A model generated the notes under the pieces. That model saw only the letters and a program-made list of their open reading frames with translations. It was not told the origin of the DNA and did no database searches. A stretch of DNA of 64,000 bases, from positions 14,864 through 78,863 of the forward strand of contig CAIYIS010000061.1 in the NCBI GenBank assembly GCA_903926385.1, given 5' to 3'. The position numbers were made by a program, and so were the translations under genes. Below are positions 10,777-51,141 of this stretch, one piece after another. Positions within the stretch are counted from its first letter, which is position 1, and each line of letters opens with the position of its first letter. Source of the stretch: an uncultured Bacteroidota bacterium. Lineage in GTDB: Bacteria > Bacteroidota > Bacteroidia > 2-12-FULL-35-15.

Positions 10777-11040
10777 TGTAACAAACGGGTGATCGGCTGT
10801 AACAAACGGGTAATCGGCTGTAACAAACGGGTAATCGGCTGTAACAAACAGGTGAGTGGTTGTAACAAACGGGTGAGCGGTTGTAACAAACGGGTGAGCG
10901 GTTGTAACAAACAGGTGAGCGGTTGTAACAAACGGGTGATCGGTTGTAACAAACGGGTGAGCGGTTGTAACAAACGGGTGAGCGGTTGTAACAAACGGGT
11001 GAGCGGTTGTAACAAACGGGTGAGTGGTTGTAACAAACGG
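10777..11040. repeat. Tandem array of 21-bp repeats (13 cores; consensus TGTAACAAACGGGTGAGCGGT)
   Basis: Cores start at 10777, 10798 and so on to 11029 with exact 21-bp period; variation is confined to a few positions; core TTGT-A-ACAA is palindromic. Confidence 0.97.
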
Positions 11041-11076
11041 ATGAATTATTGACAAAACGTTCATCTAATCAGGTTA

Positions 11077-11769
11077 TTAAGAAATTAGTAATCTAAATAC
11101 CTGACTCACGCCTTGTGGGCCATTTTTGTTTACCACTTCATGAGTAAAGTAAACATATTTGCCTACCGGTAGATTTTCGATAGTAGCTTTGGCAGCAATG
11201 GTGGGTACTATCCAGTTCCAAACCACACCATCTAACGAATATTTCCAAATATGACAAGAACGAGTGCCACCCCCGGCAGCAGTTAAAGTAACATTACCCG
11301 AAGTTTCACTGTTTACTACCTTAAATTCATGAAGCGAACTTCCTCCCAGAATTTTAATTCCAAAACCACCCGAATTCAGAATAGCTATTGCATTAGCCGG
11401 GTCATCGTCAGCAGCGGTTTGAAAAGTGCGCATCAACGATTTTAGCGCATTTACCATTGTCCTTTCTGCCGTTGCTCGTGTGGCAGGAGTTGCGGTGTTA
11501 AAAGCTCCAATTTTTCCGTTCAGAGCAGTTATCACAGGGGTAGGAATGGCAACTCGAGAGCTGCCTGCAGCAGTAGTAGAAATAAAAGTAGCTCTTACAC
11601 CTTTGTCTGCATTGCTTTCGGGCATATCCAGAGTGCCAGTTACCACATGTATCACGGTGGTAGTACTCATTAATATTACTATGTTGCCTTTTCCTTTTCT
11701 AAACTTTACACATTTTTTGGCGTAACTTCTGTTCTTTTTAGTGTTTACGCGAAATTCGATTTTTTTCAT
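11077..11769 (-). CDS. Hypothetical protein: Ala/Thr-rich helical N-domain plus C-terminal FN3-like beta-sandwich
   Basis: Amphipathic helices (..P.ITALNGKIGAF...LKSLMRTFQ...AILNSGGF) then an FN3-like pattern (WKYSLDG..W...ATIENLPVGKYVYF). Alternative start at 11670 (MSTTT). Confidence 0.75.
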   Translation of the reverse strand: MKKIEFRVNTKKNRSYAKKCVKFRKGKGNIVILMSTTTVIHVVTGTLDMPESNADKGVRATFISTTAAGSSRVAIPTPVITALNGKIGAFNTATPATRATAERTMVNALKSLMRTFQTAADDDPANAIAILNSGGFGIKILGGSSLHEFKVVNSETSGNVTLTAAGGGTRSCHIWKYSLDGVVWNWIVPTIAAKATIENLPVGKYVYFTHEVVNKNGPQGVSQVFRLLIS

Positions 11770-11996
11770 TTTTTTTAAAATTTAAGTTTTTAGTATTACT
11801 ATTATTTATGTTCTACTTCTTTCCGCTTGTTGTCGTCCTCTTTGCCCTGTCGGAATAAAGCTAATGCAGGGTAGTCGGGTGTCGGAGAGGGTGCGCATCG
11901 GGTGTTTGTTTTGCATTGTTTGGTGGGTGGTAAGCCCTGTATTACCGGTTTTGTTTTTAGTAAATGGCCCTGTGCTGTGCAACCTCTTTCGGCACT
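11770..11996 (-). ncRNA. Candidate conserved 5' leader / cis-regulatory RNA (copy A)
   Basis: Shares ordered blocks with 49820-50033 (see findings); lies just downstream of a TACTTTTA -7-like element at 11998-12005. Confidence 0.45.
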
Positions 11997-12026
11997 GTAA
12001 AAGTAAAGGCCTTGTTGGTTAAAATT

Positions 12027-12117
12027 GCTGCACTAAAGTCTGTATTTGCGCTGTACTAAAGTCTGTATTTTTGGGGAAGAATAATGTACTTTTGTGCAGT
12101 GTAAGGTGCACTAAAGT
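12027..12117. promoter_or_regulatory. Direct repeats GCTG(C/T)ACTAAAGTCTGTATTT x2 (23-bp period) plus a third partial copy; putative transcription-factor sites
   Basis: Copies at 12027 and 12050 are 20/21 identical; TGCACTAAAGT recurs at 12107. They lie just upstream of the minus-strand promoter of 11077-11769. Confidence 0.6.
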
Positions 12118-12199
12118 GCGGTTTTCGGTAAACTTTAGTTTATTTATCTCAACTATTACTTTCTTTGGTATTAAACCTTAAGATTATATTCGTTTAAAT

Positions 12200-12603
12200 G
12201 CCTCATCCCTGTTCAGGCACACAAGCAGGCTCAAATAGTCACCGGCTGTTTGTCATCCTCACTCCTAAGTAGAGGAGGTGAAACTTATTGAATCGTAAAC
12301 TTAGTTAGTACATAGTCACCCCTCTCCTTTGGAGAGGGGCTGGGGGTGAGGCGTTTTGCTATTTGTAAATAATCATAAGGATGAGTACCTTTTCTTCCGA
12401 TTGCCTCACCCCTTTATCTCCTCTCCAAAGAAGAGGGGTTGGGATATAACTATTACCCTAATTAAATAATTAAGAACAATTGAACAAACAAATAGTGAAT
12501 TTAGAAGTGTGTGGCGCAATTCTTAATTCAATTGTTCAGATGTTTGTTGTTCATTCGTCACACAACGGCCCCCTTCTCTTGTGCAGAGGGGCAGGGGAGA
12601 GGT
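12200..12603. repeat. Cluster of REP-like palindromes (CCCCTCTCCNNNGGAGAGGGG...GGGTGAGG family)
   Basis: Copies at 12319-12352 (+), 12403-12438 (-) and 12569-12603 (+, degenerate), with an interrupted copy at about 12200-12280; orientation alternates. Confidence 0.75.
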
Positions 12604-12655
12604 GATTAATGTTGCTGCCAGAAACAATTAGAATTTTTTGGTATAAATAAAATGT

Positions 12656-12663
12656 TACTTTTG
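12656..12663 (+). promoter_or_regulatory. -7 promoter element (TACTTTTG) upstream of the TPP riboswitch
   Basis: Exact TAnnTTTG match about 40 nt before the riboswitch. Confidence 0.6.
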
Positions 12664-12703
12664 CGGTGTTTTTTAAGAAAAGAATACCGTTTTTAAAAAA
12701 CAA

Positions 12704-12894
12704 ATCTTTTAAGGGGTGCCATTTAGAACTTGAAATAATGAATGACAAATTAAGATTTGAAGAGTCTTAACATTTACCATTCAAAATTCGTTACAGAACA
12801 TTTTCTTTCGGCTGAGATAATACCCAATAATTAAAATTTTACTAAAGAAATTTTAATTATGCACCTGATCAGGGTAATGCCTGCGTAGGGAGGT
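12704..12894 (+). ncRNA. TPP (thiamine pyrophosphate) riboswitch with long P3 and an extra J2/4 hairpin
   Basis: GGGGTGCC (12713)...GCTGAGATAATACCC (12811)...ACCTGATCAGGGTAATGCCTGCGTAGGGA (12863-12891): all canonical THI-box blocks, upstream of a TonB receptor. Confidence 0.93.
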
Positions 12895-12962
12895 AAGTTA
12901 AATAATGAATTGCATCCGACTCCTTTGGTTGCTGTAGGTTTAACAAAATAAATTAAATAAAA

Positions 12963-15431
12963 ATGTTTTACAAAATTAGAAAAGCTGTTGCTGTGGTGTT
13001 ATTTGCATTGCCTGCAGTGGCTATGAGTCAGTATGCAGTTTCGGGAAAAGTATTTCGCAAAGATTCTAAAGAAACTATTCCGGGTGCTACTGTTAGTATT
13101 GCCGGGACGTATGCTGCTGCACTCACTAAGAGTGACGGAAGTTTTGAGTTTGAAAATGTAAAAAAAGGAAAATGTGTGCTTGTGGCCTCGTATGCAGGTT
13201 TTCAAACGGTAACTGATACATTGATGGTGGATAAACTAACCAAAGTGGAGCTGGAACTATCAGAAAATACGGTGTTGATGGACGAAGTGGTGGTGTCGTC
13301 AACTCGAGTGGACGAAAAATCGGCAATGGCTTATAGTAATGTAAGCAAAGCCGACATAGCAGAACAGAATGTAGGGCAGGATTTGCCTTATCTGCTTAAT
13401 CAATTAACATCAGTAGTTACCACTTCGGATGCCGGTGCTGGTGTGGGTTATACAGGCATACGCATAAGAGGTTCGGATGCCACCCGAGTAAATGTTACCA
13501 TAAATGGAATACCTGTGAACGATGCCGAATCGCAGGGAACTTACTGGGTAGATTTGCCGGATATTGCTTCGAGCATTGATAATATACAGGTTCAGAGAGG
13601 TGCCGGAACATCAACCAATGGTGCAGGTGCTTTTGGAGGCAGCCTTAATATTCAAACCACCAAACTCAATCCGAAAGCTTATGGAGAGGTTAATTCTTCG
13701 TATGGTTCGTTCTCTACTCTTAAAAATACGGTTAATGTTGGTTCGGGATTAATCAATGATAAATTTGCTTTTGATGTACGATTATCAAAGGTCAACTCGA
13801 ATGGCTTTATAAACAGAGCCACTTCCGATTTAAAATCGTATTATCTCTCGGGCGCTTATTATGGAAAGAAAACAATTATCAAATTTATTACTTTTTCGGG
13901 TGTAGAAGAAACCTATCAGGCCTGGAATGGTGTGCCCGAATCTCGCCTCAATGGCGATGTTCAGGGGATGAATGAGTATATAAGCCGTAATTCTCTGGAT
14001 GCAGAGGATGCCACTAATCTTTTGAATTCAGACAGCCGAACATATAATATGTTTACTTACAAAAATCAAGTAGATCATTACAAACAGGATTATTATCAGC
14101 TTCATTTTTCTCACGAGTTTAACCGCGAATGGAATGCTAATATTGCTTTGCATTATACCAAAGGCAAAGGATACTATGAGGAATATCGCAAGGCGGATGC
14201 CTTCAGCAATTACGGATTGGATAATGTTATTGTTGGCACAGATACCATCACAACAACCAATTTGGTGCGCAGAAGATGGCTGGATAATGATTTTTACGGA
14301 ACCACATTTTCTCTTAATTATAACAACAATAAAAAATTTGCTGCCACATTGGGTGGCGCATGGAATCAGTATAAAGGTTTGCACTACGGAGAAATAATAT
14401 GGGCTCAATATGCCAGCAATGGTGTGCTTCACAATAATTATTATAACGATACTGCTCTTAAAACGGATTTCAATATGTTTGTTAAAGCCAATTATCTGGC
14501 AGGAGAACGAGTTAATTTGTATGCCGATATTCAATATCGTACAGTTGGGTATTCTTTTCTGGGATACGACAGCAATTTAAAGAATGTTCAGCAAAGCGAT
14601 ATGCTCGCTTATGTAAATCCTAAATTTGGAATTAATTTTAATATCAACGACAAAGCCAGTATTTATGCTTCTTACAGCATCGCGCATAAAGAGCCCAGCC
14701 GCGATGATTATACTCAGAGCACTCCTCAAAGTCGCCCACAGGCAGAACGTTTGAGAGATATCGAAATTGGTTATAAACATAAATTAAAGAAAATAATGTG
14801 GAGCTTGAATTATTATGCAATGAAGTATAACAATCAACTTGTGCTTACCGGGCAGGTTAATGATGTAGGAGCTTATACCCGTACCAATGTTCCGAATAGT
14901 TATCGTCAGGGTTTGGAAGCTGAATTGGGCATAAAGATCTTTAAACAATTAACCTGGAATGTAAATGCCACTTATAGCGAAAATAAAGTGGAACAGTTTA
15001 ATGAGTTTATGGACGAATATGATGAAGTGTACAATTATATTGGACAACGTCAGAATACTTATGCCAAAACAGACATTGCTTTTTCTCCTGACCTGATTGC
15101 CGGTAGTACCTTAGTGTTAGAACCTGTCAGAAATTTGAAGTTTAGTTTTATCAGTAAATATGTAGGGAAACAATTTTTGGACAACACATCTGATGAGGCA
15201 CGTAAACTGAATGCCTACTTTGTAAACGACTTTAGAATTAATTACACAGTTAAAACCCGTTTACTTCGTGAAATTGGTTTTACACTTTCAGTTAATAACC
15301 TTTTCAGCGAAAAATACGAGTCGAACGGATACACATATTCTTATGTTTATGCCGGAAAGCCAATTACCGAGAACTTTTATTTCCCTCAGGCGGGATTAAA
15401 TTTCATGAGCGGTATTACTCTTAAATTCTAG
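12963..15431 (+). CDS. TonB-dependent receptor, probable thiamine outer-membrane transporter
   Basis: Signal peptide; CarboxypepD-like N-domain; plug IRIRGSDATRVNVTINGIP; C-terminal F; TPP riboswitch upstream. Confidence 0.9.
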   Translation: MFYKIRKAVAVVLFALPAVAMSQYAVSGKVFRKDSKETIPGATVSIAGTYAAALTKSDGSFEFENVKKGKCVLVASYAGFQTVTDTLMVDKLTKVELELSENTVLMDEVVVSSTRVDEKSAMAYSNVSKADIAEQNVGQDLPYLLNQLTSVVTTSDAGAGVGYTGIRIRGSDATRVNVTINGIPVNDAESQGTYWVDLPDIASSIDNIQVQRGAGTSTNGAGAFGGSLNIQTTKLNPKAYGEVNSSYGSFSTLKNTVNVGSGLINDKFAFDVRLSKVNSNGFINRATSDLKSYYLSGAYYGKKTIIKFITFSGVEETYQAWNGVPESRLNGDVQGMNEYISRNSLDAEDATNLLNSDSRTYNMFTYKNQVDHYKQDYYQLHFSHEFNREWNANIALHYTKGKGYYEEYRKADAFSNYGLDNVIVGTDTITTTNLVRRRWLDNDFYGTTFSLNYNNNKKFAATLGGAWNQYKGLHYGEIIWAQYASNGVLHNNYYNDTALKTDFNMFVKANYLAGERVNLYADIQYRTVGYSFLGYDSNLKNVQQSDMLAYVNPKFGINFNINDKASIYASYSIAHKEPSRDDYTQSTPQSRPQAERLRDIEIGYKHKLKKIMWSLNYYAMKYNNQLVLTGQVNDVGAYTRTNVPNSYRQGLEAELGIKIFKQLTWNVNATYSENKVEQFNEFMDEYDEVYNYIGQRQNTYAKTDIAFSPDLIAGSTLVLEPVRNLKFSFISKYVGKQFLDNTSDEARKLNAYFVNDFRINYTVKTRLLREIGFTLSVNNLFSEKYESNGYTYSYVYAGKPITENFYFPQAGLNFMSGITLKF

Positions 15432-15563
15432 TAGTCAAAAGGACTGTGGTTTTAGGAATTTGTACCACAAAATAAGTATTACGTCTAATAATATTCAATT
15501 GAATTGAAATTATACTTAAAATTGTGCATCCATTGATTATAAAATTATTTAACTACAACAATT

Positions 15564-15866
15564 ATGAACTATCAAAAAGCGATTGAGAAGGTAAAAAAAT
15601 ATACCAGTTTTGTAGGAAAACAAATGCATATCGAAGAACACAGAGAAAAGATTACTATAAAGAAAGTAATGCTTTGTGAAATTATCTCGTCCAAAGGAGA
15701 TTCCGACCCCAAGCCGGAATACATAGTGCTGGATAATCTGGATTTGATGAAAGATAATTCGGAGAAACTAAAAGATAAAAATCTGGATGTAATTGTTGTT
15801 TACGAAAAATCTATTCTGAACGAATCGATAGCTGCCGATTTTAATAAGAAATATCCTCTTTTATAA
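15564..15866 (+). CDS. Hypothetical protein
   Basis: 100-aa ORF with an A-rich translation initiation region and a terminator downstream; no recognisable motif. Confidence 0.6.
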   Translation: MNYQKAIEKVKKYTSFVGKQMHIEEHREKITIKKVMLCEIISSKGDSDPKPEYIVLDNLDLMKDNSEKLKDKNLDVIVVYEKSILNESIAADFNKKYPLL

Positions 15867-15907
15867 AATAAGACTACTTCTCATTCCAACTAACTTTAAT
15901 AATTAAG

Positions 15908-15945
15908 CAAAAAGAAAGGGCGATTAATATCGCCCTTTCTTTTTG
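15908..15945. terminator. Bidirectional intrinsic terminator
   Basis: caaaaagaaagggcgat-taat-atcgccctttctttttg between convergent genes. Confidence 0.9.
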
Positions 15946-15962
15946 TTTATAGTTTTAAATTC

Positions 15963-17858: not shown

Positions 17859-17891
17859 TTCTATTTAATATATGTCTTTTTTTTAAGGGCG

Positions 17892-17899
17892 CAAAGATA
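17892..17899 (-). promoter_or_regulatory. -7 promoter element (TATCTTTG) for yidC
   Basis: Exact TAnnTTTG match on the minus strand about 35 nt upstream of the ATG. Confidence 0.55.
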
Positions 17900-17957
17900 A
17901 TAATAATTCTATGTTGCGATAGGTTAATAAGTGTTATAAGGAAAAGGTGAAAAGAGC

Positions 17958-19982: not shown

Positions 19983-20040
19983 TGAAAAGAAAATAATTTT
20001 TTAAAGTATAGTTTTAATTTTTGTTTGTATTGTTGAATCA

Positions 20041-20081
20041 TCTCTTCCCTGTCAGAGTTTGGAACACTGACAGGGAAGAGA
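20041..20081. terminator. Intergenic hairpin after the AsmA-like gene
   Basis: tctcttccctgtcag...ctgacagggaagaga 15-bp inverted repeat. Confidence 0.7.
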
Positions 20082-20089
20082 GAAAAGAA

Positions 20090-25292: not shown

Positions 25293-26264
25293 TTATTCGG
25301 TAATTTCTACTACATATGTTGCTTCGTTTACCGAAGATAAATTCTTGAGTATAAAAAATGGAAACGAATTCTTGCCATAGGCAGGAGCCATTTCGTTTTT
25401 GTCTTTCCCGTTGTTCACTATTATGCCTTCGCCAGTAAGCGGTTCATCAGTATCGTGCTCGCCAAAGTAGGCTATAATATTGGCATTGGTAGTTGTGTTT
25501 CTTACATTGATGAGTTGTGTATCCTCAAAAAGCTCATTAAATATAACCACTTTGGCCCCCGGAGCAATACTTCCGCTTTTTACCACATGATGATGACGGG
25601 TACTATTAAATAATAAATGGAAACTAAAAAACGACATAGAGGTTGGTATGTCGCCCGGAAACAAGCCACCAACTGTATGTATAGCCGAACATAAATTTAA
25701 TTCGAGTGTTGTTCGTGTGGTATCGCGGTCGTCTCGTTTGGTCGATACGTTACCTTTTTGAGTCATCTGATTTGATTTTGCAGTTGTCCACTGCGCTTTG
25801 AATCCCTGAAGTAATGCGGCTAAAGTGGTACCTAATGCAGTAGCGTTAGTACTTGCAGCTGTTTTTACACGTTGTGTTAAAGCGTTCATTTCGGTTTGAC
25901 GGGCAATAGTGTATTCCGTAACTTTATGCGGATAAAATTGAAGATAGGCAGTGGTGGCGCGACCTCCAAGGGCAGAGGCTATAAATGGTTCTTGTTCGCT
26001 CATTGTTTTTTTGAACAAGGTCATTGTTCCTTCCACATTCATGGTTCCTCCCTTTTGCAAGGTTAGCGCCACATCCAGATTACTTATGTTTCCTGAAAAA
26101 GCAGGATAAGACGAATTAAGCAAGGTAAGGATAGCGTCAAAACGGCTTCCGGTGTTTCCACTCGTAAGGCGCGCTATGCAATCGGAAGCAAAACTATCCA
26201 ATCTGGTATTGATAATATTTTTGTCATTAAAATAATTTTCAAATATTTTGTCTGGTGAAATCAT
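25293..26264 (-). CDS. Hypothetical protein: long helical N-domain plus C-terminal beta domain
   Basis: 323-aa ORF, Ala/Thr-rich amphipathic helices to about aa 215, then beta-strand pattern; no signal peptide. Confidence 0.75.
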   Translation of the reverse strand: MISPDKIFENYFNDKNIINTRLDSFASDCIARLTSGNTGSRFDAILTLLNSSYPAFSGNISNLDVALTLQKGGTMNVEGTMTLFKKTMSEQEPFIASALGGRATTAYLQFYPHKVTEYTIARQTEMNALTQRVKTAASTNATALGTTLAALLQGFKAQWTTAKSNQMTQKGNVSTKRDDRDTTRTTLELNLCSAIHTVGGLFPGDIPTSMSFFSFHLLFNSTRHHHVVKSGSIAPGAKVVIFNELFEDTQLINVRNTTTNANIIAYFGEHDTDEPLTGEGIIVNNGKDKNEMAPAYGKNSFPFFILKNLSSVNEATYVVEITE

Positions 26265-26399
26265 GATACTTTGTTTTTATTGTTTTTACTACTTGATATA
26301 ATAATTGATTATGTATTTAATTCGTTTTAATTAGTTGCTGTAGTTTGCTTACAGCGATTAAATTTGTTCAACATGTTTTCCCATTTTCAGGAATACCTA

Positions 26400-26656
26400 T
26401 TGAACACGTTCAGGGGCTTTTCCTGATTTTCGGAATAGGTGTTGAACACGTTCAGAGGCCTTTCCTGATTTTCGGAATAGGTGTTGAACACGTTCAGAGG
26501 CCTTTCCTGATTTCCGGAATAGCTGTTGAACACGTTCAGAGGCTATTCCCGATTTTCGGAATAAGTGTTGAACACGTTCAGAGGCTATTCCCGATTTTCG
26601 GAATAGGTGTTGAACACGTTCAGAGGCCTTTCCTGATTTTCGGAATAAGTGTTGAA
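26400..26656. repeat. Tandem array of six 42-bp repeats (TTGAACACGTTCAGAGGCCTTTCCTGATTTTCGGAATAGGTG)
   Basis: TGAAC cores at 26401, 26443, 26485, 26527, 26569 and 26611, partial at 26653; each unit holds two palindromes about 21 bp apart. Confidence 0.97.
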
Positions 26657-26883: not shown

Positions 26884-27234
26884 ATGAAAAAAGAAAATGA
26901 TAATGGAAAGAATACCATCAATTCGATGACGTATTTGAATTCAACTATTGATCGACCTTTTCAGATGATGGTTTTACATTTAATACTGAAAGGGAATCGC
27001 AGCTTCAACAAACTTCTGGAAGAAGTGGGTGGAGAAAACAAAAGGTCTGAGCTTTCGGGCACGATAGGACTTTTTAAACTTCATGGTTTAATTAGTGTTG
27101 TTCCGGTGGAAGGTGTAAAAGGAGTAAAGCACTTTTATGAGTCTAGCGAATTGGCTCATGAGTACGAAACCTACATTAAGTTAAAAGCTGAATTAGGAAG
27201 GAAATTATTAGAGCACAGGAAAAATAACCTGTAA
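26884..27234 (+). CDS. Winged-helix transcriptional regulator, HxlR-like (divergent)
   Basis: Pattern VLHLILKGNRSFNKL...ELSGTI....HGLI...HFYE fits the HxlR/MarR wHTH; divergent from 25293-26264. Confidence 0.65.
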   Translation: MKKENDNGKNTINSMTYLNSTIDRPFQMMVLHLILKGNRSFNKLLEEVGGENKRSELSGTIGLFKLHGLISVVPVEGVKGVKHFYESSELAHEYETYIKLKAELGRKLLEHRKNNL

Positions 27235-40207: not shown

Positions 40208-40251
40208 TGTGGTGAAAACAATTCCATACATTTTTTACCATTTTAGTTTTT

Positions 40252-43155: not shown

Positions 43156-43320
43156 TTGCTCAATTAAAAGTTCGTAAAATTACTTAAATAACACCATAAT
43201 CATCCCTTTTCTTTTTTCTCAGTTTCTTCCATATCTATTCAACTTCTAACACGCCAACGTTCGATTATTTTGGTCAAATTTCTGCCAAAATTGGTAAAAC
43301 ATGACAAACTGACCACTTTT

Positions 43321-43508
43321 TCCTTAATTCCTTTTCTCGGTTCTCTAATTCCCTTCCTCGCGTCCCCAATTCCCTTACTCCGGTCTCCAATCACCCTCCT
43401 CCGCTCCCTTATTCCCTCCCTCAATTCCCCAGGGATATCCTCTGGTCTCTAATTCCTCCCCTCTACTCCTTATTTCCTTTCCTCCATACCCTAATCCCTC
43501 TCCTCCGA
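43321..43508. repeat. Degenerate pyrimidine-rich 21-bp tandem repeats (about 9 units, TCYYWAATTCCYTYCTCNNN-like)
   Basis: Units start at 43321, 43342, 43363, 43384, 43405, 43426, 43446, 43467 and 43488. Confidence 0.75.
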
Positions 43509-43570
43509 TGTATAATCACCATATTTCAACCATCATTTACTATAAGATTTTTGTCCGGAAATGGCAAATG

Positions 43571-43675
43571 TTCTCCAATTACCACCCTTTACTCTTCAAT
43601 TATCACCCTTCACTCTCCAATTATCACCTTTTACTCCTCAATCATCACCCTTTGTCCTTCCAAACTACCCCATTT
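43571..43675. repeat. Second 21-bp repeat block (CTCTCCAATTATCACCCTTTA-like, 4-5 units)
   Basis: Units at 43571, 43592, 43613 and 43634, degenerate at 43655. Confidence 0.8.
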
Positions 43676-43717
43676 CCCGGAATAGATTTCCCTTTTCTCT
43701 TTATTTATCCATTTCAT

Positions 43718-43753
43718 AAAAAAAGAGGAACGACTTAAAGTCATCCCTCTTTT
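43718..43753 (-). terminator. Intrinsic terminator of rny
   Basis: Minus strand AAAAGAGGGATGACT-TTA-AGTCGTTCCTCTTTTTTT; the G-U pairs work only on the minus strand. Confidence 0.85.
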
Positions 43754-43776
43754 ACAATTCAATTCAAAAAAACTAC

Positions 43777-45318: not shown

Positions 45319-45462
45319 AATTTTTCTAAATTGTTAAGTTGTTGTTATTAATTTTAATCCTCTTTCGTCTGTTTAGCGGTTGCCAAATTAAACTTAAAAG
45401 GTGCACTCAAAAAACTAATACAGGTAATTTTGTTTACAATGTTGTGTTCACAACATCAAAAC

Positions 45463-45756
45463 TTAGGCAGACGTGCTCTCTTTTTGAAGGTATTGGGAAA
45501 CAAATAGGTCGAGTTGGTTTATTTCTTTCTCCAGCTCAGGCGATTTTTTAGGTGTGTTTTGTTGCGCTACTAATAAATTTAATGCAGTCATTGCGAGTAA
45601 ATCTTGTTTGTCTCTCACTGCATAGTTTTGCTCCATTTCTTTCACTTTATCACTAATCATTTTAGCTGTATTTTGAACCAATTGTTCCTCTTCCTTTTTT
45701 ACGGTTAAGGGGTAGGTTCTGCCAGCAATTAAAACTTTTATTGATACTTCGGCCAT
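45463..45756 (-). CDS. zapA: Cell division protein ZapA
   Basis: IKVLIAGRTYPL...DKQDLLAMTAL; conserved position upstream of rny. Confidence 0.9.
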   Translation of the reverse strand: MAEVSIKVLIAGRTYPLTVKKEEEQLVQNTAKMISDKVKEMEQNYAVRDKQDLLAMTALNLLVAQQNTPKKSPELEKEINQLDLFVSQYLQKESTSA

Positions 45757-45848
45757 CTTATTTATCTCAGGTTTTTGGTTTTTTGTGCCGGGGAGCTCTA
45801 CTTTGCACTATATGTATTCTTCCCGATACGCGAACTGAAAACTTTTTT

Positions 45849-46133
45849 TTACTTCAAAAGAGTAATGCAATTGTCTATTTCCTGCACTAGCTCATTAATC
45901 TTTAATTTTGTTTCTGATATTACTTCTTTCTGTTCCTGATTATTTCTTTCTGCTAATTCCGCCTTTTCTTTTTCTAATTTCTCAATAATTGATTTTTGTT
46001 CTTCCAGAGTTTTACTTAACGTTGAATTTTCATTCAGGAGTTGTTCTTTCTCTTCTTTCAGTTGTTTGTGCAAACTAACCAAATGTTCTATTTTTGCTTT
46101 TAAGTTGGTAATCGTACCAGTCAATTCTTCCAT
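45849..46133 (-). CDS. ZapB-like coiled-coil protein
   Basis: All coiled coil, ending KINELVQEIDNCITLL; directly upstream of zapA; TATCTTTG promoter element at 46167-46174. Confidence 0.75.
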   Translation of the reverse strand: MEELTGTITNLKAKIEHLVSLHKQLKEEKEQLLNENSTLSKTLEEQKSIIEKLEKEKAELAERNNQEQKEVISETKLKINELVQEIDNCITLLK

Positions 46134-46258
46134 ATTTCTACCCGAAAATTCAAATATTATTTTTTACAAAGATAAGATTGAATTAATATAAAATCAAATT
46201 ATTTTTTTTATAAACTAAATTGCGACTAATATTAGCCGTTTTAAGACACTCTGAAGAT

Positions 46259-46504
46259 CTATTTTTTGATGACAATAGATAATTCCATTCCTCCACATTT
46301 AGGGCAATTTCCAGCTTTGTCAGATAATACTTCCGGATGCATTTCACATTGATAGAAGACTTCTCCATCTTTCAGTTTGGTAGTATCCAGATTAAATGTT
46401 TGTGTTGAATTTGTTTGCTCTCCGGTTGAGGTTGCATTTTTACATCCCACAACAGAAAGAGCAATTATAGCTGTTATCAATAATATTAGTTTTTTTATTC
46501 TCAT
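46259..46504 (-). CDS. Heavy-metal-binding domain lipoprotein
   Basis: Lipobox VVGC; YQCEMHPEV.SDKAGNCPKCGGMEL motif. Confidence 0.88.
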   Translation of the reverse strand: MRIKKLILLITAIIALSVVGCKNATSTGEQTNSTQTFNLDTTKLKDGEVFYQCEMHPEVLSDKAGNCPKCGGMELSIVIKK

Positions 46505-46564
46505 TTTTTAATGTGCTATTCGTGAATTATTTTGATTGAAAAATTAGTTGCAAATGTAGTTTAA

Positions 46565-46690
46565 TTATTTTATAACATTGAACATTTTATTATGGTTATT
46601 AACCCTCAGAAAATACATGCATTGAGCAAATATGGAATTAGATAAAATCAGGAATAATGAAGAAAGGCTTAAAGTGTAAATTTTTTTCAT
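46565..46690 (-). pseudogene. Possible remnant of a secreted-protein gene (signal peptide only)
   Basis: MKKIYTLSLSSLFLILSNSIFAQC is a typical Bacteroidota signal peptide plus Q, followed by a stop about 17 codons later. Confidence 0.35.
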
Positions 46691-46789
46691 ACTTAAATAA
46701 TTAACGTAAAAATAACGAAAATAAGTTGGATTGAATCCAAGGCAATGGCACAAAATTAGAAAAAATCTTATTCTTAAAATGAAAAAGAA

Positions 46790-47443
46790 CTATTCTATCA
46801 ACCCATTTTTGATGGCATACATTACCGCACCAATGATGTTTTTTGCTCCGGTTTTCTTGATAATGTTTTTTTTATGAGTTTCAACGGTGGTTGTGTCTAT
46901 GTGCAATTTTTCGGCTATATATAAATTGGTACATTCTTTACATACTAATTCAAAAACTTCAAGTTCCCTTTCCGTTAAGGTCACCTTTTCGAATTTTGGT
47001 TTAATTTTTTTTGTAATCATTAATTCTTTTACCAAAGCTCTCGGAACTTTATCATTAAAAAAGTATCCGTTTTCTTTAACAGAATAAATGGCGTCAACAA
47101 TGGTTTCAATGGTATTGTTCTTTAATAAAAACCCCCGAGCGCCCAATTCAATTAAGTGCAACATTATTTCTTCCGAATGATGATGAGTTAGGATTATAAC
47201 TTTGAGGTCGGGATGGTGTTTGGTAAGATAGGCCGTGGTTTCAACTCCGTCCATCTTTGGCATATCCACATCTAGCAATACAATATCAGGAACTTCAATC
47301 TTTAATTTTTCAATAAAATCCGATCCGTTTTCGGCTTCCATAAGTATTTTTATATCGCGAAATGATTTGAATAATGTTTTTAACCCCTTAATAAATATAC
47401 CGTGATCGTCAACTATTGCAATTTTTATTTGGACCATACCCAA
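46790..47443 (-). CDS. NarL/LuxR-family response regulator
   Basis: IVDDH, LLDVDMPKMDG, GFLLKN; HTH LTERELEV...TVETHKKNI. Confidence 0.95.
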   Translation of the reverse strand: MGMVQIKIAIVDDHGIFIKGLKTLFKSFRDIKILMEAENGSDFIEKLKIEVPDIVLLDVDMPKMDGVETTAYLTKHHPDLKVIILTHHHSEEIMLHLIELGARGFLLKNNTIETIVDAIYSVKENGYFFNDKVPRALVKELMITKKIKPKFEKVTLTERELEVFELVCKECTNLYIAEKLHIDTTTVETHKKNIIKKTGAKNIIGAVMYAIKNGLIE

Positions 47444-47456
47444 AATATCAAGTTTG

Positions 47457-48290
47457 TTAAAATGTTTTTAATTTGATTTGTGTTTCTTCTAATTCTGTTT
47501 CAGGAACCGAGATTTTAATTCGAGACGTAATTTTATCAGAACTATAATAAAGAGTAGCATTTAATGTTTGTACCCTGCTTTTAATACTTCTCAACCCTAT
47601 GCCATTTGCGGTATGCGAAAGGATTTCTGCTTTTTCATCTGTTAATCCATCGCTGTTGTATTCAAAGTAAATGTTTAGTACTTTGTCGTAATGAATGGTT
47701 AAATTTACCTGTGTGGCATCAGCATGTTTGATAATATTATTGAGTAGTTCTTTTGTAATTCGATACAACTGCAATTCGTTTTTTGGAGAAAATCGTTGGT
47801 TTTTTAAATTGTGAACATATTCAATTCGTTTTTGTCCTGAAGCATTGAGCATCGAGCAAAGTTCTTTCATGGCATACACAAAACCCAGGCGGATGAGAGC
47901 TGGTGGCATTAAATCGTATATTATGGTACGGCTGGTTTCTATGGTGTTTTCTAAAAGCTGTATCGACTCGTCCATAACTTCAGAAACCAAATCTTTGTCT
48001 TGCATATTGGCTTTCATTATTTCAAAATTTTTAGAAATAAAATTAAGATTAGCTCCAACATCATCGTGCAGATTTTTGGCTATTTTTTCGCGTTCTTTTT
48101 CGGTCACCAAAATTTCAGACTCCAACAATTTTTGACGATGCTGAAGGTTTAATAATTCCAGTTCGCTTTGCTTTACAGACATTCGTTTTTTGTGTGCAAT
48201 CACAAAAATGATTAATGCAGAAACCAGCAGAAGCATTCCCATGCAGCCCAATACTATAAAATAGGCTATATTTATTTTTTCAGTTTCCAA
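47457..48290 (-). CDS. Single-TM sensor histidine kinase (HisKA_3), no extracellular sensor domain
   Basis: One N-terminal TM; EREKIAKNLHDDVG; ELLNNIIKHA; GIGLRSI. Confidence 0.92.
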   Translation of the reverse strand: METEKINIAYFIVLGCMGMLLLVSALIIFVIAHKKRMSVKQSELELLNLQHRQKLLESEILVTEKEREKIAKNLHDDVGANLNFISKNFEIMKANMQDKDLVSEVMDESIQLLENTIETSRTIIYDLMPPALIRLGFVYAMKELCSMLNASGQKRIEYVHNLKNQRFSPKNELQLYRITKELLNNIIKHADATQVNLTIHYDKVLNIYFEYNSDGLTDEKAEILSHTANGIGLRSIKSRVQTLNATLYYSSDKITSRIKISVPETELEETQIKLKTF

Positions 48291-48916
48291 AATCCAATAC
48301 TTATAGGTATGTAGTAAATCATATTCATAAGAGGTAATATAATTGCAGCGTTTTTGCTTTCTTTGCAGGCCGCATCATATAAAAAACTGCTGAATAAAAA
48401 GTAGAATAAATTGCCGGAGTAATAAAACAGGAATGCACTATTTATTAAAAATAATGGATTGTTTACCATAGTGCCTTCTGAGGTTAGCATCAGTTGATAA
48501 AAAAGAATCACTGTGTAAATAATCATCAGTAAGGCTTCGAGTGAAAGCGCATAATCATTTATTTTTAAAGAAGAATGTACAATATAATCAAAAATGGCAA
48601 CAATAATATAAATAAGAAAACTTGCTACAATAAATACACGAGCACTTCGGTTTGTTATTACTTTATAATAAAAAAGGCTTAGTAGTGCAAATTCCAAAAA
48701 TGCACCTGTTCTTATAAATATAAGATTGTTCCATTTATGCAGAAAGTAATACATAGAAATTGTTTCAGCAAAGCAATAAAGGATAATTAGAAAGTAAATA
48801 AATTTTAACTGTGGGTGGTTGTATGCCTTGTTGATGCTTCCTGTAATAAGAGGAAAGATGAGGAACAACACAGCTCCATAAGTAAGAAGTTTAATCAGTT
48901 TTATTTCAATTTCCAT
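48272..48916 (-). CDS. Polytopic (6-7 TM) membrane protein, probable sensory partner of the kinase
   Basis: Almost entirely hydrophobic helices; its stop overlaps the kinase start by 19 nt. Confidence 0.8.
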   Translation of the reverse strand: MEIEIKLIKLLTYGAVLFLIFPLITGSINKAYNHPQLKFIYFLIILYCFAETISMYYFLHKWNNLIFIRTGAFLEFALLSLFYYKVITNRSARVFIVASFLIYIIVAIFDYIVHSSLKINDYALSLEALLMIIYTVILFYQLMLTSEGTMVNNPLFLINSAFLFYYSGNLFYFLFSSFLYDAACKESKNAAIILPLMNMIYYIPISIGFWKLKK

Positions 48917-48939
48917 TCCTGTTTCATTTGTTGAATAAA

Positions 48940-48975
48940 AAAGGAAAAAGGCAGAATTAACTGCCTTTCTCCTTT
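48940..48975 (-). terminator. Intrinsic terminator/attenuator between the small gene and the membrane protein gene
   Basis: Minus strand aaaggagaaaggcag-ttaatt-ctgcctttttccttttt. Confidence 0.8.
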
Positions 48976-48978
48976 AAT

Positions 48979-49293
48979 TTACTTAGTAAAAGGACTGTTA
49001 ATATCACATACCGAAAGGCAAGGTGCAGAAAGATCTCCCAATTTTCCATTTGGTAAATCATTACCATTAATATCTACACCAACTAATACTAGCTGACGTT
49101 CACCATTGTTGTTTATGGCTTGATAGATTCTAATGCCGACAGCATTGGGCTGAGTGAGCACTGTATTGATAATGGATTTGCCAAAGTAATGCGCTTTTAC
49201 TTCACCGGGATAATTAGCCTGATACTTTTTTACCATTGTTATGGCATCTGTAAGTTGAATTTCTCCACCTGCGTTTGGATTGAATGTTGACAT
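48979..49293 (-). CDS. 104-aa hypothetical protein with GIRIY/LVLVGVD core and C-terminal PCxxxC
   Basis: Good A-rich TIR; first gene of the membrane protein-HK-RR unit; no signal peptide. Confidence 0.8.
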   Translation of the reverse strand: MSTFNPNAGGEIQLTDAITMVKKYQANYPGEVKAHYFGKSIINTVLTQPNAVGIRIYQAINNNGERQLVLVGVDINGNDLPNGKLGDLSAPCLSVCDINSPFTK

Positions 49294-49440
49294 AATAATT
49301 TAAGTTTTTAAGGTTAAAAATAAAGATTAATTTTTTTGTAAAGCTACTAATAAAAACGAATAAAAAAAGTTAGTGTGCATTTTTTTGAAAAAATGCTATC
49401 CCCTGTTTTCGGGCGTTTGAGTGAGTTGTTAACAATTTCT

Positions 49441-49525
49441 TCTACCTGATTCGGGTAGATAAAATCCCTGAATCAGGTAGAAGAAAAAATCCCTGAATCA
49501 GGTAGAAAATCTACCTGATTCAGAT
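49441..49525. promoter_or_regulatory. Four palindromic boxes CCTGA-W-TC(A/G)GG; putative response-regulator operators
   Basis: Centres at 49450, 49472, 49497 and 49519; two identical 22-nt copies aaaatccctgaatcaggtagaa; the last box abuts TTTG (49525), with TATCTTTG at 49550-49557. Confidence 0.7.
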
Positions 49526-49582
49526 TTGGAACTTCCGTTTGCCCCATTTTATCTTTGCCCCGACAATAATTAGTGTTTCATA

Positions 49583-49804
49583 ATGTGTAATCTTAGTAAT
49601 ATGGAAAAGGATAAATTAAGCTTAGAAAAGCTATGTATAAACATTGCCGATGTGCAGGATGTTTTGTATTGGTGCAACAGACTAAACTGTGACCAGATTG
49701 ATTTGGTAAATGCCGTCAGGTCTATAGGCAATAAAGCCAATATGGTGGACATGATATTGGTGTTAAATAAATGGAAAGGACGTACTCATTCTAAAGTAAG
49801 ATAA
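49583..49804 (+). CDS. Small DUF3606-like protein
   Basis: DVLYWCNRLNCDQIDLVNAVRSIG resembles the DUF3606 pattern (..YW...G.....L..AV..VG); -33/-7 promoter upstream. Confidence 0.6.
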   Translation: MCNLSNMEKDKLSLEKLCINIADVQDVLYWCNRLNCDQIDLVNAVRSIGNKANMVDMILVLNKWKGRTHSKVR

Positions 49805-49819
49805 TAATAGAAAGCAGCG

Positions 49820-50033
49820 AATGCCGAAAAACTCTTAAAGGCATTGCATAATGACCCGAACAGCATTTCATCCGAGGTTGACTCAAAAGACATGCAGAAT
49901 AAATGGCCTGCACATATTTGCAAATAAAATAAAGAACAGAGCGGGAAGACAAGCCGCAAGCCTGCACTGAAAAAAAGCGGAAATGAGTAAACCAAAAATC
50001 TATAAAGAGTAGGAAAAACTAATTTGTTTCAAC
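49820..50033 (+). ncRNA. Candidate conserved 5' leader / cis-regulatory RNA (copy B)
   Basis: Shares ordered blocks with 11770-11996; opens with an AATGCC...GGCATT hairpin. Confidence 0.45.
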
Positions 50034-50534
50034 ATGGCAAATGCAACAGAAAACAGAATAAACGTTACGATATCTGCAGCCAAAATAATCGCAATCGAAA
50101 CAGCATTTACAGATATAAATGCTGCTCTGGATGGCTGTACGGTGGCTCTGACAGATGACGAACGTAAATCGTTATTCAGTCTGGATGTGGAAAACAAGGA
50201 TTTTGCAAACGACTGTATGGCTCAGGGCATGGCACTAATTGCCTCTCTGCCTCCAGCTTTGCAAACCATTGTTACCAATCTGCAAAACGACCTTGCCCTG
50301 AATGCTCAGCTCGATAGGATAGAAAATCTCCTATTAGCGTTGGTACAGCAACGTGTGGCAGACACCAAGCGGATGTCGGCTCACGAGGCTTATGTGGCGG
50401 CTTTGGCTATCTATAAATTTATAGAAGCTATGGCAGGTATGGGTATTGAAGGCTTTCAGGCTGCTTACGATATACTGAAACCACGTTTTGAAGGACAGGG
50501 TGTAAAACCATCTACACAGGGTCCTACTGGTTAA
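50034..50534 (+). CDS. All-helical hypothetical protein
   Basis: 166 aa; pattern LT.DERK.L...DL.L..QL...DT....EAY.AAL.IY...A..G..G....YD.LK.RF, recalled as a widespread uncharacterised Bacteroidota family. Confidence 0.8.
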   Translation: MANATENRINVTISAAKIIAIETAFTDINAALDGCTVALTDDERKSLFSLDVENKDFANDCMAQGMALIASLPPALQTIVTNLQNDLALNAQLDRIENLLLALVQQRVADTKRMSAHEAYVAALAIYKFIEAMAGMGIEGFQAAYDILKPRFEGQGVKPSTQGPTG

Positions 50535-50541
50535 TCTCAGG

Positions 50542-50600
50542 TTGATAAAACCATCAAAATCCTGTTATAATTGTCACTGGCAGGATTTTGGTTTTATCAA
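50542..50600 (+). terminator. Long hairpin after 50034-50534
   Basis: ttgataaaacc-atc-aaaatcctg...caggatttt-ggttttatcaa. Confidence 0.7.
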
Positions 50601-50608
50601 TTAATAAA

Positions 50609-50784
50609 GAAAAAATAATGCATAATGCGCAATAGAGTTATGTATTACATATAATAAACTTATGTGAAACACATAAATGAATTATGCAAAACACATAATA
50701 AACTTCTGTAAAATGCATAAATGAATTATGCAAAACACGTAATGAAATACGTTAAAACACCAAATGATTTAATTAAAACAAAAG
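50609..50784. repeat. AT-rich 22-bp tandem repeats (7-8 units, alternating two types) with CATAA-N5-TTATG palindromes
   Basis: Units start at 50631, 50653, 50675, 50697, 50719 and 50741, with degenerate units at 50609 and 50763; perfect TGCATAA-N5-TTATGCA at 50714-50732. Confidence 0.85.
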
Positions 50785-51141
50785 ATGGCAAAAGAACAAA
50801 GAAATAAATTTAAAGGCATACCACCACCTCACGTTGGCGAAATACTAAAAAAATACATCAAACAGAACAGGCTGTATCAAGCAGGTTGGGCCAGAAAACA
50901 AGGCGTGCTCCCAACCACAGTTCTTGCTTATTTCAAAAAATCTTCCATGCAAATTTCTACCTTATTTACCATTTGTCAGGTATTAGAATTTAATTTTTTT
51001 AAAGCCATAGCCGATGCGCTGCCGCCCGAAATGCCTCCGCAAAACGTCAATCCCCTGCAACCGGAACTTGACCAAATAAAGAAAGAAAACGAAGCATTGA
51101 AAATGGAAAACGACATCTTAAAAAAATTGCTGAATAAATAA
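50785..51141 (+). CDS. Cro/CI-like HTH protein with C-terminal coiled coil
   Basis: HVGEILKKYI...QAGWARKQGV..TTV......SMQISTLFTICQVLEFNFF; tail ELDQIKKENEALKMENDILKKLL. Confidence 0.75.
   Translation: MAKEQRNKFKGIPPPHVGEILKKYIKQNRLYQAGWARKQGVLPTTVLAYFKKSSMQISTLFTICQVLEFNFFKAIADALPPEMPPQNVNPLQPELDQIKKENEALKMENDILKKLLNK

Follow-up and report, generated by a model that had tools for sequence, protein, structure and literature searches.

In the genome of this uncultured Bacteroidota bacterium, orphan genes of unrelated families lie beside tandem arrays of a short non-coding unit that keep a strict period of 21 bp or its multiples. This linkage is near-obligate for the families concerned and is conserved across genomes even though the sequence of the unit turns over. 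The recurring locus type is apparently undescribed, and our search of the literature found no description of such a gene-array locus. With about even chances in our judgement, the three such loci in the window (the whole stretch of 64,000 nucleotides analysed here) form one class in which a non-coding array of 21 or 42 bp serves in cis as a helically phased protein-binding platform that controls the adjoining gene. That a protein binds the arrays, which protein this would be, and that transcriptional control would be the outcome, we infer. A sequence-only reading had drawn attention to the three loci; its observation is confirmed, and its interpretation as a whole is partly supported.

All three window arrays are recovered by Tandem Repeats Finder (TRF), none with an assigned strand, and the pairings of gene and array hold far beyond the window. 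Array 1 (10776..11044; period 21, 12.8 copies, 93% matches, score 440) starts 33 bp past the stop codon of gA (11077..11769, minus strand), a member of family A with 28 paralogs in the genome, and precedes the start of a T9SS RCC1-repeat gene (5254-10482) by 294 bp. Its unit recurs in a second array (G000:C83:42022-42269), where the flanks are homologous as well and a fragment of a gA pseudogene is present. Array 2 (26376..26656; period 42, 6.7 copies, 91% matches), with two short inverted repeats in each 42-bp unit, occupies intergenic DNA between divergent genes, upstream of gB (25293..26264, minus strand; 112 bp to its ATG), a member of family B with 11 paralogs in the genome. It had been described as 2 x 21 bp, but TRF reports a 42-bp row only, so the unit does not consist of two similar 21-bp halves. 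The third locus runs from gC (50034..50534, plus strand), encoding an acidic, all-helical protein of 166 aa, through the AT-rich array 3 (50631..50757), resolved by TRF as either 22-bp (5.1 copies, 71% matches) or 44-bp (2.2 copies, 88%) repeats, to the small gene hC (50785..51141, plus strand; 118 aa), which starts 28 bp beyond the end of the array. Array 3 is the weakest of the three window arrays. Two further weak 21/42-bp arrays found by TRF (43326-43422 and 43572-43653), which the sequence-only reading had not used, are flanked by the start of a UvrA-like gene and the end of an RNase Y gene (Pfam), indicating that arrays occur beside ordinary genes too. An equally unused 22/25-bp TRF repeat (49445..49523), with CTACCTGATTCAGG-type palindromes, lies upstream of a small DUF3606 gene (49601-49804; DUF3606 match E 7e-7). 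Since the public contigs of four lake metagenome runs are, without exception, interrupted within arrays 1 and 2, array copy numbers in the assembly may be underestimates.

The period near two DNA turns seen in the window proves to be a strict 21n register throughout the genome: among 357 tandem arrays scoring at least 80, 224 repeat every 21 bp or at multiples of that length, with 163 arrays at 21 bp, 54 at 42 bp, three at 20 bp and six at 22 bp. Given a density of about one array per 17 kb, with 332 of 3210 crude gene calls within 500 bp of a 21n array, adjacency to an array in the window alone is unsurprising. The association with particular families exceeds this background and is near-obligate. 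In this genome, a 21n array lies within 400 bp of 25 of the 28 members of family A (5' in 14, 3' in 11), a 42-bp array lies just upstream of all 11 members of family B, and arrays adjoin 12 of 15 members of family C36 and three of five of family D5. The association recurs in other genomes, where across 12 genomes family A retains the pairing at 20 of 27 loci, the unit sequence differing each time, and C36 at 11 of the 15 loci having at least 700 bp upstream. Family B carries the array at 17 of 24 loci in six other genomes, again with different units. Six of the seven misses have less than 320 bp of upstream sequence, and among foreign loci with at least 400 bp the array is present in 16 of 17, always 5' and always with a period of 41 or 42 bp. 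The gene, array, small gene layout of the third locus is found at five of seven gC loci, the window included, with an array of 21-, 22- or 63-bp period just downstream of gC, whose homologs occur in G018, G027, G029 and G031; a weak gC paralog, C81_108886, has the same layout. By the criteria applied here, three of the four hC paralogs in this genome have an array upstream, and the fourth is preceded by a 44-bp x 2 repeat.

The proteins at these loci are diverse. That gA, gB and gC form one protein family is ruled out by BLASTP, which finds nothing significant among them, by hhalign (probability at most 1.4% for any pair) and by their differing folds. The helical character of all three proteins and the C-terminal beta-sandwich of two, which had been proposed, do appear in structural models, the helical part being N-terminal. 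In the gA model (pLDDT 77), a disordered stretch (residues 1-40) precedes a four-helix bundle (53-133) and an FN3 domain (137-228; Foldseek E 1.6e-5; structural alignment Z 12.2, rmsd 2.2, 85 aligned); translation probably begins at Met 34, and the protein has no matches in Pfam, PHROGs, PADLOC or NCBIfam. The gB model (pLDDT 82.6) joins a long bundle of helices (15-36, 43-98, 123-140 and 143-201) to a jelly-roll-like beta-sandwich at 226-322; structure searches gave no convincing full-length match, and hhalign relates gB to a 318-aa cluster (probability 97.6%, E 4.5e-12). For gC, all-helical in the Atlas's own model, the nearest structural clusters are unnamed, apart from one auto-named as a chemotaxis protein (TM 0.77). 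Thus, of the single undescribed class with a common fold and enriched flanking arrays that had been envisaged, the recurring linkage of gene and 21n array across genomes stands and flanking arrays are hugely enriched, but the folds are unrelated and the proteins are not one family. hB (26884..27234, plus strand), a 116-aa ORF divergent from gB, had been called HxlR-like, but it finds no Pfam match up to E 10 and has no paralogs in the genome, and in the nearest relative, G041, an unrelated ORF takes its place at the orthologous locus; hB is not a conserved part of the gB-array module. The Cro/CI-like call for hC, with its weak HTH-like N-terminal part and C-terminal coiled coil, finds no firm support: its HipB-type HTH match (E 0.0027) stays below the cut-off (17.7 versus 79 bits), and a Pfam search at relaxed E returned coiled-coil-type weak matches only.

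We propose that each array is a helically phased row of binding sites acting in cis. Such a class would be defined by a spacing of exactly two helical turns (21 bp), or else of 42 bp, beside several unrelated orphan families, represented in this genome by A, B, C36, D5 and the gC/hC pair. Some DNA-binding protein would assemble into oligomers on one side of the helix and regulate how the gene next to it is expressed, the candidate binder being the neighbouring stand-alone LytTR or HTH-zipper protein where present, or possibly the orphan protein itself. gB and its paralog (pI range 5.18-6.39) and gC (pI 4.62) are acidic, and the acidity of gB and gC counts against binding by the orphans. In favour of the platform we count the strict period with free sequence, the gene linkage here and elsewhere, the non-coding nature of the arrays and, as described below, the orthologous locus in G041, the co-occurrence of arrays and families across genomes and the palindromes of the 42-bp units; the arrays at 3' ends or far from genes, the lack of a protected sub-block and the motif-poor leaders, also described below, speak against it. 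The model may be likened to LytTR regulators, whose direct repeats measure 9 bp and have 12 bp between them. The genome holds 23 LytTR-domain genes, 10 of them small and stand-alone; of these 10, eight belong to family A, C36 or gC modules, with an array no more than 1.6 kb away, and six to eight array modules hold such a gene. With 10 stand-alone genes for about 249 arrays, mostly of different sequence, these LytTR genes cannot supply a private binder for every array. At the three window loci, Pfam scans find no LytTR gene, and the weak HTH of hC is the one recognisable DNA-binding domain encoded beside an array.

The LytTR operator is the closest analogue of the arrays, with the same 21-bp spacing. 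According to PMC6193735, these operators, including those of stand-alone LytTR regulatory systems of the HdrR/BrsR type, consist of 9-bp direct repeats with 12 bp, in a minority 11 or 13 bp, between them, giving a centre-to-centre distance of 21 bp and in a minority 20 or 22 bp; the corresponding arrays here number 163, 3 and 6 for 21, 20 and 22 bp. We count as further likenesses their position upstream of the controlled operon (PMC6193735) and the small stand-alone LytTR genes within array modules of this genome. However, the operators are described there as two, rarely three, repeats lying upstream of the -35 element at a distance of a few bp (PMC6193735), whereas the arrays here have 5-18 full-unit copies. 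They also lie 18-405 bp from the start codon, they far outnumber the stand-alone LytTR genes, and the window loci have no LytTR gene. To our knowledge there is no LytTR precedent for 42-bp arrays. Plasmid iterons (about 22 bp, with a Rep gene) and the F sopC centromere (43 bp x 12, with SopB) are likewise tandem direct repeats, of about two and four helical turns respectively, adjoining the gene of their own binding protein. Unlike these, the modules here are chromosomal and number about 60 per genome, Rep, ParA and ParB domains were not detected, and the adjoining proteins combine a helical bundle with an FN3 or jelly-roll-like sandwich.

It is possible, though we think it unlikely, that the arrays are selfish or near-neutral dispersed minisatellites, MITE-like, that spread through intergenic DNA, the gene linkage arising because gene and array duplicate together. 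BrickBuilt of Porphyromonas gingivalis offers a precedent: it is described (Klein et al. 2015, PMC4596501) as an intergenic minisatellite-MITE with a 23-nt unit, present 19 times in one genome and with promoter activity. Also from a Bacteroidota, it is like our arrays a strictly intergenic, spacer-free tandem repeat in many copies per genome, and its distance of 49-591 nt from neighbouring genes and proposed role as a transcription modulator are likenesses too (PMC4596501). That account describes a single, species-specific family of 23-nt units that has leader and tail subunits and ends in inverted repeats (PMC4596501), whereas the arrays here have periods of 21 or 42 bp and the 216 non-genic ones fall into 141 unit clusters; their linkage is to specific protein families and is conserved across several taxonomic families. 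Dispersal is suggested by 39 unit clusters that hold 2-9 arrays each at different loci, the copies in four sets examined sharing just 50-250 bp of flank, by the 40 of 224 arrays within 1.5 kb of a contig end, and by the abundance of other short repeats in array flanks. In addition, the tie to orphan genes that had been proposed holds for the families but not for the arrays at large, since only 48 of the 216 non-genic arrays touch the labelled gene sets (five protein families and the LytTR genes) and about 78% adjoin other, ordinary genes. Among the 216, 46 are found solely 3' of genes and 12 are more than 500 bp away from any gene, and convergent, divergent and tandem intergenic regions are occupied in proportion to their length, all of which is unexpected for a pure promoter element. 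However, family B proteins have diverged to 10-20% identity, over which a neutral passenger would vanish, and still 11/11 and 16/17 loci keep the array. Moreover, period drift is scarce (nine arrays at 20 or 22 bp against 163 at 21), no transposase or recombinase is linked (as had been claimed, the 47 window ORFs scanned hold no integrase, transposase, RT or Cas domain), and the family proteins lack invariant catalytic-type residues.

Perhaps the arrays are instead sequence-independent structural DNA, in-phase bends forming a putative curved or looped promoter element or nucleoid anchor with no specific binder, an option to which we give little chance. In its favour, periods stay at two or four helical turns whatever the sequence, and array units show no protected sub-block (conserved positions are unclustered, with p<0.05 in 4 of 63 arrays where 3.2 would be expected). 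Total lengths are equal, with medians of 229 bp for 21-bp and 232 bp for 42-bp arrays, although this common length may reflect an assembly limit. The locus in G041 orthologous to that of gB, next to aroC, is also of note: the gB ortholog is 58% identical and the 42-bp period and position of its array (L079 4819-5038, 5.2 copies) are kept, but the unit is only partly similar to that of array 2, and only in inverted orientation, which fits an orientation-independent DNA element under selection. Left unexplained by purely structural DNA are the 42-bp period of family B as opposed to the mostly 21-bp period of A, C36 and D5, the restriction of arrays to genomes with the orphan families (4, 4 and 7 21n arrays per 100 kb in three carriers, none in 397 kb from four genomes without a family match) and the enrichment of palindromes. 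The palindromic cores claimed earlier are only partly confirmed: inverted-repeat stems of at least 6 occur in 22 of 140 21-bp units against about three expected from shuffles (mean stem 4.05 versus 3.33) and arms of at least 6 in 15 of 29 family B 42-bp units against three, but in the majority of 21-bp units the stem is no longer than chance would give.

These inverted repeats would also suit arrays that act as RNA, as long 5' or 3' UTRs of repeated hairpins that determine how stable or how well translated the mRNA is, or that serve as binding sites for the encoded protein, which we consider similarly improbable. The leaders between array and ATG of family genes are A-rich and in most cases without the promoter motif TAnnTTTG, which is found in 12-30% of members of A, B and C36, 0/4 in D5 and 49% of other array-flanked genes, so the array might be transcribed, and between array 2 and its G041 counterpart the unit's hairpin-like part is not the same in sequence but is self-complementary in both. 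A search of RNA runs turned up none containing the locus. An RNA element, however, would not tolerate orthologous units that are similar in inverted orientation only; the chance-level stems of most 21-bp units, the occurrence of family A arrays on either side of the gene and an Rfam search that gave no family at the gathering threshold argue against it as well. Finally, that the arrays encode heptad (7-aa or 14-aa) peptide repeats, as periods in multiples of 3, the three open frames of array 1 and 4.25 open frames per consensus unit versus 3.87 in shuffles might suggest, is close to refuted, for the arrays are non-coding: variation within them lacks 3-base periodicity (0.499 versus a null of 0.502), 11 of 102 are closed in all six frames and periods of 41, 62 and 103 exist. 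Returning to the phased, protein-binding platform, the linkage of gene and array in three unrelated families in many genomes points to an undescribed gene-control element.

Tandem Repeats Finder (TRF) recovers all three arrays that the sequence-only reading had placed beside orphan genes in the window. Array 1 (10776-11044; 21 bp x 12.8 copies, 93% matches) lies beside gene gA (11077-11769, minus strand), array 2 (26376-26656; 42 bp x 6.7 copies, 91% matches, the 42-bp row alone being reported) beside gB (25293-26264, minus strand), and array 3 (50631-50757; 22 bp x 5.1 copies at 71% matches, or 44 bp x 2.2 copies at 88%) beside gC (50034-50534, plus strand). Further arrays of a similar kind occupy 43326-43422, 43572-43653 and 49445-49523. 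The three focal ORFs match nothing in Pfam, PHROGs, PADLOC or NCBIfam, and a scan of 47 window ORFs found no integrase, transposase, reverse transcriptase or Cas domain, in agreement with the earlier statement that no such gene is nearby. The setting is that of an ordinary Bacteroidota chromosome, with gatB, aroC, yidC, rny, T9SS cargo genes and two-component systems. Since 332 of 3210 gene calls in the whole genome lie within 500 bp of an array, three array-orphan pairs in one window are unremarkable by themselves.

Other elements share this stretch. A hairpin repeat of the CCCCTCTCC...GGAGAGGGG type is present three times (12318-12352, 12407-12440 and 12572-12606) in the 1.2-kb stretch upstream of gA. 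Many arrays across the genome are flanked by it as well, and lake metagenome contigs cover it to a depth of about 690, compared with 13 for the surrounding DNA. A TPP riboswitch-like element (12834-12908, plus strand; 42.8 bits, E 5.8e-7, below the Rfam gathering score of 54.3) precedes the TonB-dependent receptor gene 12963-15431, and a DUF805b RNA motif (RF02914; 51459-51496, plus strand; 43.2 bits, above the gathering score) is found just downstream of the module formed by gC and its neighbor hC (50785-51141, plus strand). The gene next to array 1 on its downstream side (5254-10482, minus strand) encodes a T9SS cargo protein of 1742 aa that contains RCC1-like repeats.

When the whole assembly (4.27 Mb, 85 contigs) was scanned with TRF and merged arrays scoring at least 80 were kept, 357 arrays remained, 163 with a period of 21 bp and 54 with a period of 42 bp, next to 3 at 20 bp and 6 at 22 bp. 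With multiples of 63-126 bp included, arrays whose period is 21 bp or a multiple (21n arrays) number 224 and make up 1.3% of the genome. On a crude ORF map 189 of them are intergenic; the arrays are spread over tandem, divergent and convergent intergenic regions roughly in proportion to region length (44, 47, 43 and 23 arrays versus 160, 147, 144 and 86 kb), and 40 of the 224 lie less than 1.5 kb from a contig end. Their units are diverse, forming 141 clusters among 216 non-genic arrays. Palindromes are enriched in 42-bp units (arms of at least 6 in 15/29 versus 3 expected), and inverted repeats are moderately enriched in 21-bp units (stems of at least 6 in 22/140 versus about 3 expected). Public contigs of four DNA runs from lake metagenomes break inside arrays 1 and 2 and thus carry no copy-number information, so the median length of about 230 bp that is common to both periods may be a technical ceiling; because arrays break short-read assemblies, they are systematically under-represented in metagenome-assembled genomes. 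A separate repeat family has periods of 41, 62 and 103 bp (mixed 20- and 21-bp steps) and often lies at contig ends (e.g. C2:102138-102473 and C8:627-1114 of the same genome); its unit cluster has 8 members, to which no family gene is linked.

The original observation is confirmed, and it is stronger than the sequence alone could tell. Searched with gA by tblastn, the genome yielded nine loci, each followed by a 21-bp array of differing sequence, and an iterated HMM search converged on 28 members of this family A, 25 of which lie within 400 bp of a 21n array, placed 5' of the gene in 14 cases and 3' of it in 11; a homologous-protein search with gA returned 4 proteins. Clustering of all array-flanking proteins followed by hhalign yielded the other families. 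Gene gB joins a 318-aa cluster (probability 97.6%, E 4.5e-12) to form family B, which with one more copy added by genome search has 11 members, all 11 with a 42-bp array immediately upstream. Two clusters of about 225 aa are joined by hhalign (probability 99%) into family C36, with an upstream array in 12/15 members, and the smaller family D5 has one in 3/5. An upstream array is likewise present in 3/4 members of the hC family, the fourth being preceded by a 44-bp x 2 repeat, and a weak gC paralog elsewhere in the genome repeats the layout gC-like gene, array, hC-like gene. By eye, a T9SS cargo gene lies downstream in 7 of about 26 family A members versus a background of 11%, a weak effect.

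The association extends to related genomes. Family A occurs in 12 of the 40 relatives searched, with 13-24 matches in each of the same-genus genomes G006, G018, G021 and G024, which also hold B and C36. At foreign family A loci a 21n array lies within 500 bp in 20/27 cases, genomes devoid of B and C36 included. Family B was found in 6/40 relatives (4 of the 24 searched within the genus, plus 2 belonging to other families of the class), and 17/24 of its foreign loci have a 41-, 42- or 84-bp array 49-280 bp upstream, each differing in unit; six of the seven array-less loci offer less than 320 bp of upstream sequence before the contig ends. C36 is present in the same six relatives and in G029, with 21n repeats at 11 of the 15 foreign loci that have enough upstream sequence. 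Homologs of gC occur in G018, G027, G029 and G031, and among gC-type loci, that of the window included, 5/7 carry a 21-, 22- or 63-bp array immediately 3' of the gene, and a small ORF in the same direction usually comes next. In 100-kb samples, G027 and G018 contain 4 21n arrays each and G024 contains 7, a number biased upward because the G024 contigs were chosen via family hits; G017, G013, G002 and G019, which lack family hits, contain none in 397 kb together, and 100 kb of G044, a genome outside the family search, contain none. The family counts in the genome itself and in its relatives lead us to reject chance adjacency as the cause of the pairing.

G041 is the nearest relative when aroC is compared (71% nucleotide identity), and its orthologous locus holds, at the same chromosomal site, aroC, a gB ortholog with 58% identity and an array of 42 bp x 5.2 copies (positions 4819-5038 of the G041 locus), whose unit resembles that of array 2 over a 22-nt stretch (19/22), in the opposite orientation only relative to the conserved gene. 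This suggests an inversion or a re-seeding of the array. The remainder of the G041 unit is a differing self-complementary sequence. Thus, position, period and approximate copy number have been retained through speciation, while the sequence and even its orientation have changed. Searches for related loci found no conserved stretch when based on the family B alignment, and the G041 ortholog only when based on a three-sequence alignment. The gene-array module is under selection, as its presence, side and period are kept although the sequence is free.

The sequence-only reading had envisaged one undescribed class of locus, and in part this holds: a class of gene-array modules exists, the expected enrichment of flanking arrays at family homologs is seen in the genome and its relatives (A 25/28, B 11/11), and the literature searches turned up no published description of it. 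A shared protein family and an HxlR-type partner did not survive. The three focal proteins are unrelated: pairwise protein comparison and hhalign, which gives a probability of at most 1.4% between family A, gB and gC, reject a single family. The gene hB (26884-27234, plus strand), taken for an HxlR regulator, matches no Pfam family at E up to 10 and has only a 14-bit NCBIfam match to an unnamed protein; since the ORF beyond the G041 array is unrelated to it, hB lies outside the module. The presumed Cro/CI (XRE) protein hC gives a weak match to an NCBIfam HipB antitoxin HTH model (E 0.0027, 17.7 bits versus a cut-off of 79) and none to a Pfam HTH family.

A helical N-terminus followed by a C-terminal beta-sandwich, as previously described, is found in two of the three proteins, as an architecture rather than as a common family. 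In the model of gA, residues 1-40 are disordered, residues 53-133 form a very confident four-helix bundle, and residues 137-228 form an FN3 domain (Foldseek E 1.6e-5; VIA-align Z 12.2, rmsd 2.2, 85 residues aligned). The family A profile matches multi-FN3 proteins, and Pfam's own fn3 model gives no match to gA. The gB model has very long helices in a bundle and a C-terminal sandwich resembling small jelly-roll proteins; a structural search with its helical part returned generic helical bundles only (best Z 9.7, below the meaningful level for helical proteins), and weak matches to large toxin complexes were rejected as meaningless (rmsd >45 Å). The gC protein is helical, and both it and gB sit among unnamed ESM Atlas clusters. 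No invariant catalytic-type residues were seen in the families.

How the arrays might act is a matter of graded likelihood. The reading that we favor, at about even odds, is that the array is a helically phased, putative protein-binding DNA platform: a protein would bind it as a phased row and thereby control the adjoining gene. Leaders of the family genes are A-rich (46-60% A), and the Bacteroidota -7 motif TAnnTTTG occurs within 80 nt of the start in 12-30% of A, B and C36 members and in none of the four D5 members examined, compared with 49% of other genes having an upstream array. With this motif mostly missing, the promoter would be non-canonical, or lie at or beyond the array. Some results speak against the platform reading: no more than 48 of the 216 non-genic arrays are at labeled gene sets (families plus LytTR genes), conserved positions within units do not cluster and no protected sub-block was detected, and gB and gC are acidic.

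To our knowledge, LytTR is the one DNA-binding domain that uses 21-bp-spaced direct repeats. A scan of the genome found 23 LytTR genes. Ten of them are small and stand-alone (124-189 aa); 8 of the ten belong to family A, C36 or gC modules, with an array no more than 1.6 kb away. The order LytTR, A, array is seen with the LytTR genes C45:409-783 and C72:34287-34661, the order LytTR, array, C36 with C16:20824-21387 and C46:11252-11698, and the order LytTR, gC-like gene, array, hC-like gene with C81:109444-110013. Small LytTR genes are also numerous in the array-rich G024 and G027 and almost absent from G017 and G013, which are array-free; there, LytTR open frames are almost all 230-270 aa long, a size typical of the larger LytTR genes here. 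According to excerpts of PMC6193735, stand-alone LytTR regulators recognize 9-bp repeats 12 bp apart (a minority 11 or 13), so that the 21-bp (9+12) centre-to-centre spacing of their direct repeats is shared by the 163 period-21 arrays. However, a LytTR operator consists of two repeats a few bp upstream of the -35 element, whereas the arrays here have 5-18 copies and lie 18-405 bp from the start codon. Moreover, a LytTR system encodes its regulator at the locus, as do some modules elsewhere in this genome but not the three window loci: PF04397 has no match among the 47 window ORFs, nor at E up to 10 in the focal ORFs. Since an iterated search found no further LytTR genes in the genome, LytTR proteins cannot serve all arrays as private binders.

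It is possible, though we think it unlikely, that the arrays are a selfish dispersed minisatellite. Arrays with related units do recur at several loci with 50-250 bp of common flank (in 4 same-unit sets examined), resembling small dispersed elements, and most lie away from the labeled gene sets: 48 of the 216 non-genic arrays touch a family or LytTR gene, 110 precede other genes, of ordinary size, 46 lie at 3' ends only and 12 far from any gene. The one published element that the literature searches turned up, BrickBuilt, is a minisatellite MITE with one family of 23-nt units, leader/tail subunits and inverted-repeat ends (PMC4596501), whereas the arrays here are of 21 or 42 bp and fall into many unit clusters (141 for 216 arrays). 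The literature searched holds no account of 21-bp-register arrays tied to gene families. Array flanks are full of other short repeats. Tandem motifs of 7-8 bp, of the TTCTAAAA, ATTCGTAA and ATTTCAGA types, crowd the intergenic DNA around arrays (e.g. C33:41785+ and C22:5650-5899) and tie 178 array flanks into one BLAST component.

A more specific proposal, and a doubtful one, is that each orphan protein (A, B, C36, D5) is a new sequence-specific DNA-binding protein that polymerizes on its own private array with a putative 21-bp or 42-bp footprint. Such a protein, with a helical bundle and an Ig-like or jelly-roll domain, would be architecturally akin to eukaryotic Ig-fold transcription factors; dozens of orthogonal protein-array pairs per genome could serve as bistable switches or chromosomal marks, and each pair would have as its regulon the gene-less arrays that share its unit. 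As a check on the regulon idea, multi-array unit clusters that hold a family-linked array number 19/39 versus 18.9 expected.

We rate two other explanations as more improbable still, to the same degree: an RNA element, the arrays matching no Rfam family at gathering threshold, and structural DNA that acts by itself, free of any binder. Coding repeats were rejected: within-array variation lacks codon periodicity (0.499 versus 0.502), none of the six frames is open in 11 of 102 arrays, and some periods are 41, 62 or 103, so the arrays are non-coding. An iteron replicon, which has a Rep gene beside its repeats, does not fit: no Rep family matches in Pfam, PHROGs or NCBIfam, and the loci are chromosomal, beside aroC, yidC and rny, one of them being syntenic in G041. 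The arrays are not CRISPRs because their units run head to tail without spacers, the window also having no Cas domain, and they are not assembly artefacts because they recur in independent assemblies.

If the arrays are indeed phased binding platforms, they would represent a so far undescribed gene-control architecture in these lake Bacteroidota, with hundreds of arrays per genome that conserve helical register alone and are tied to at least five protein families without assigned function. This would provide a function, or an experimental handle, for several large clusters of "hypothetical proteins" in Bacteroidota and other phyla, and it would constitute a natural set of orthogonal protein-DNA pairs.
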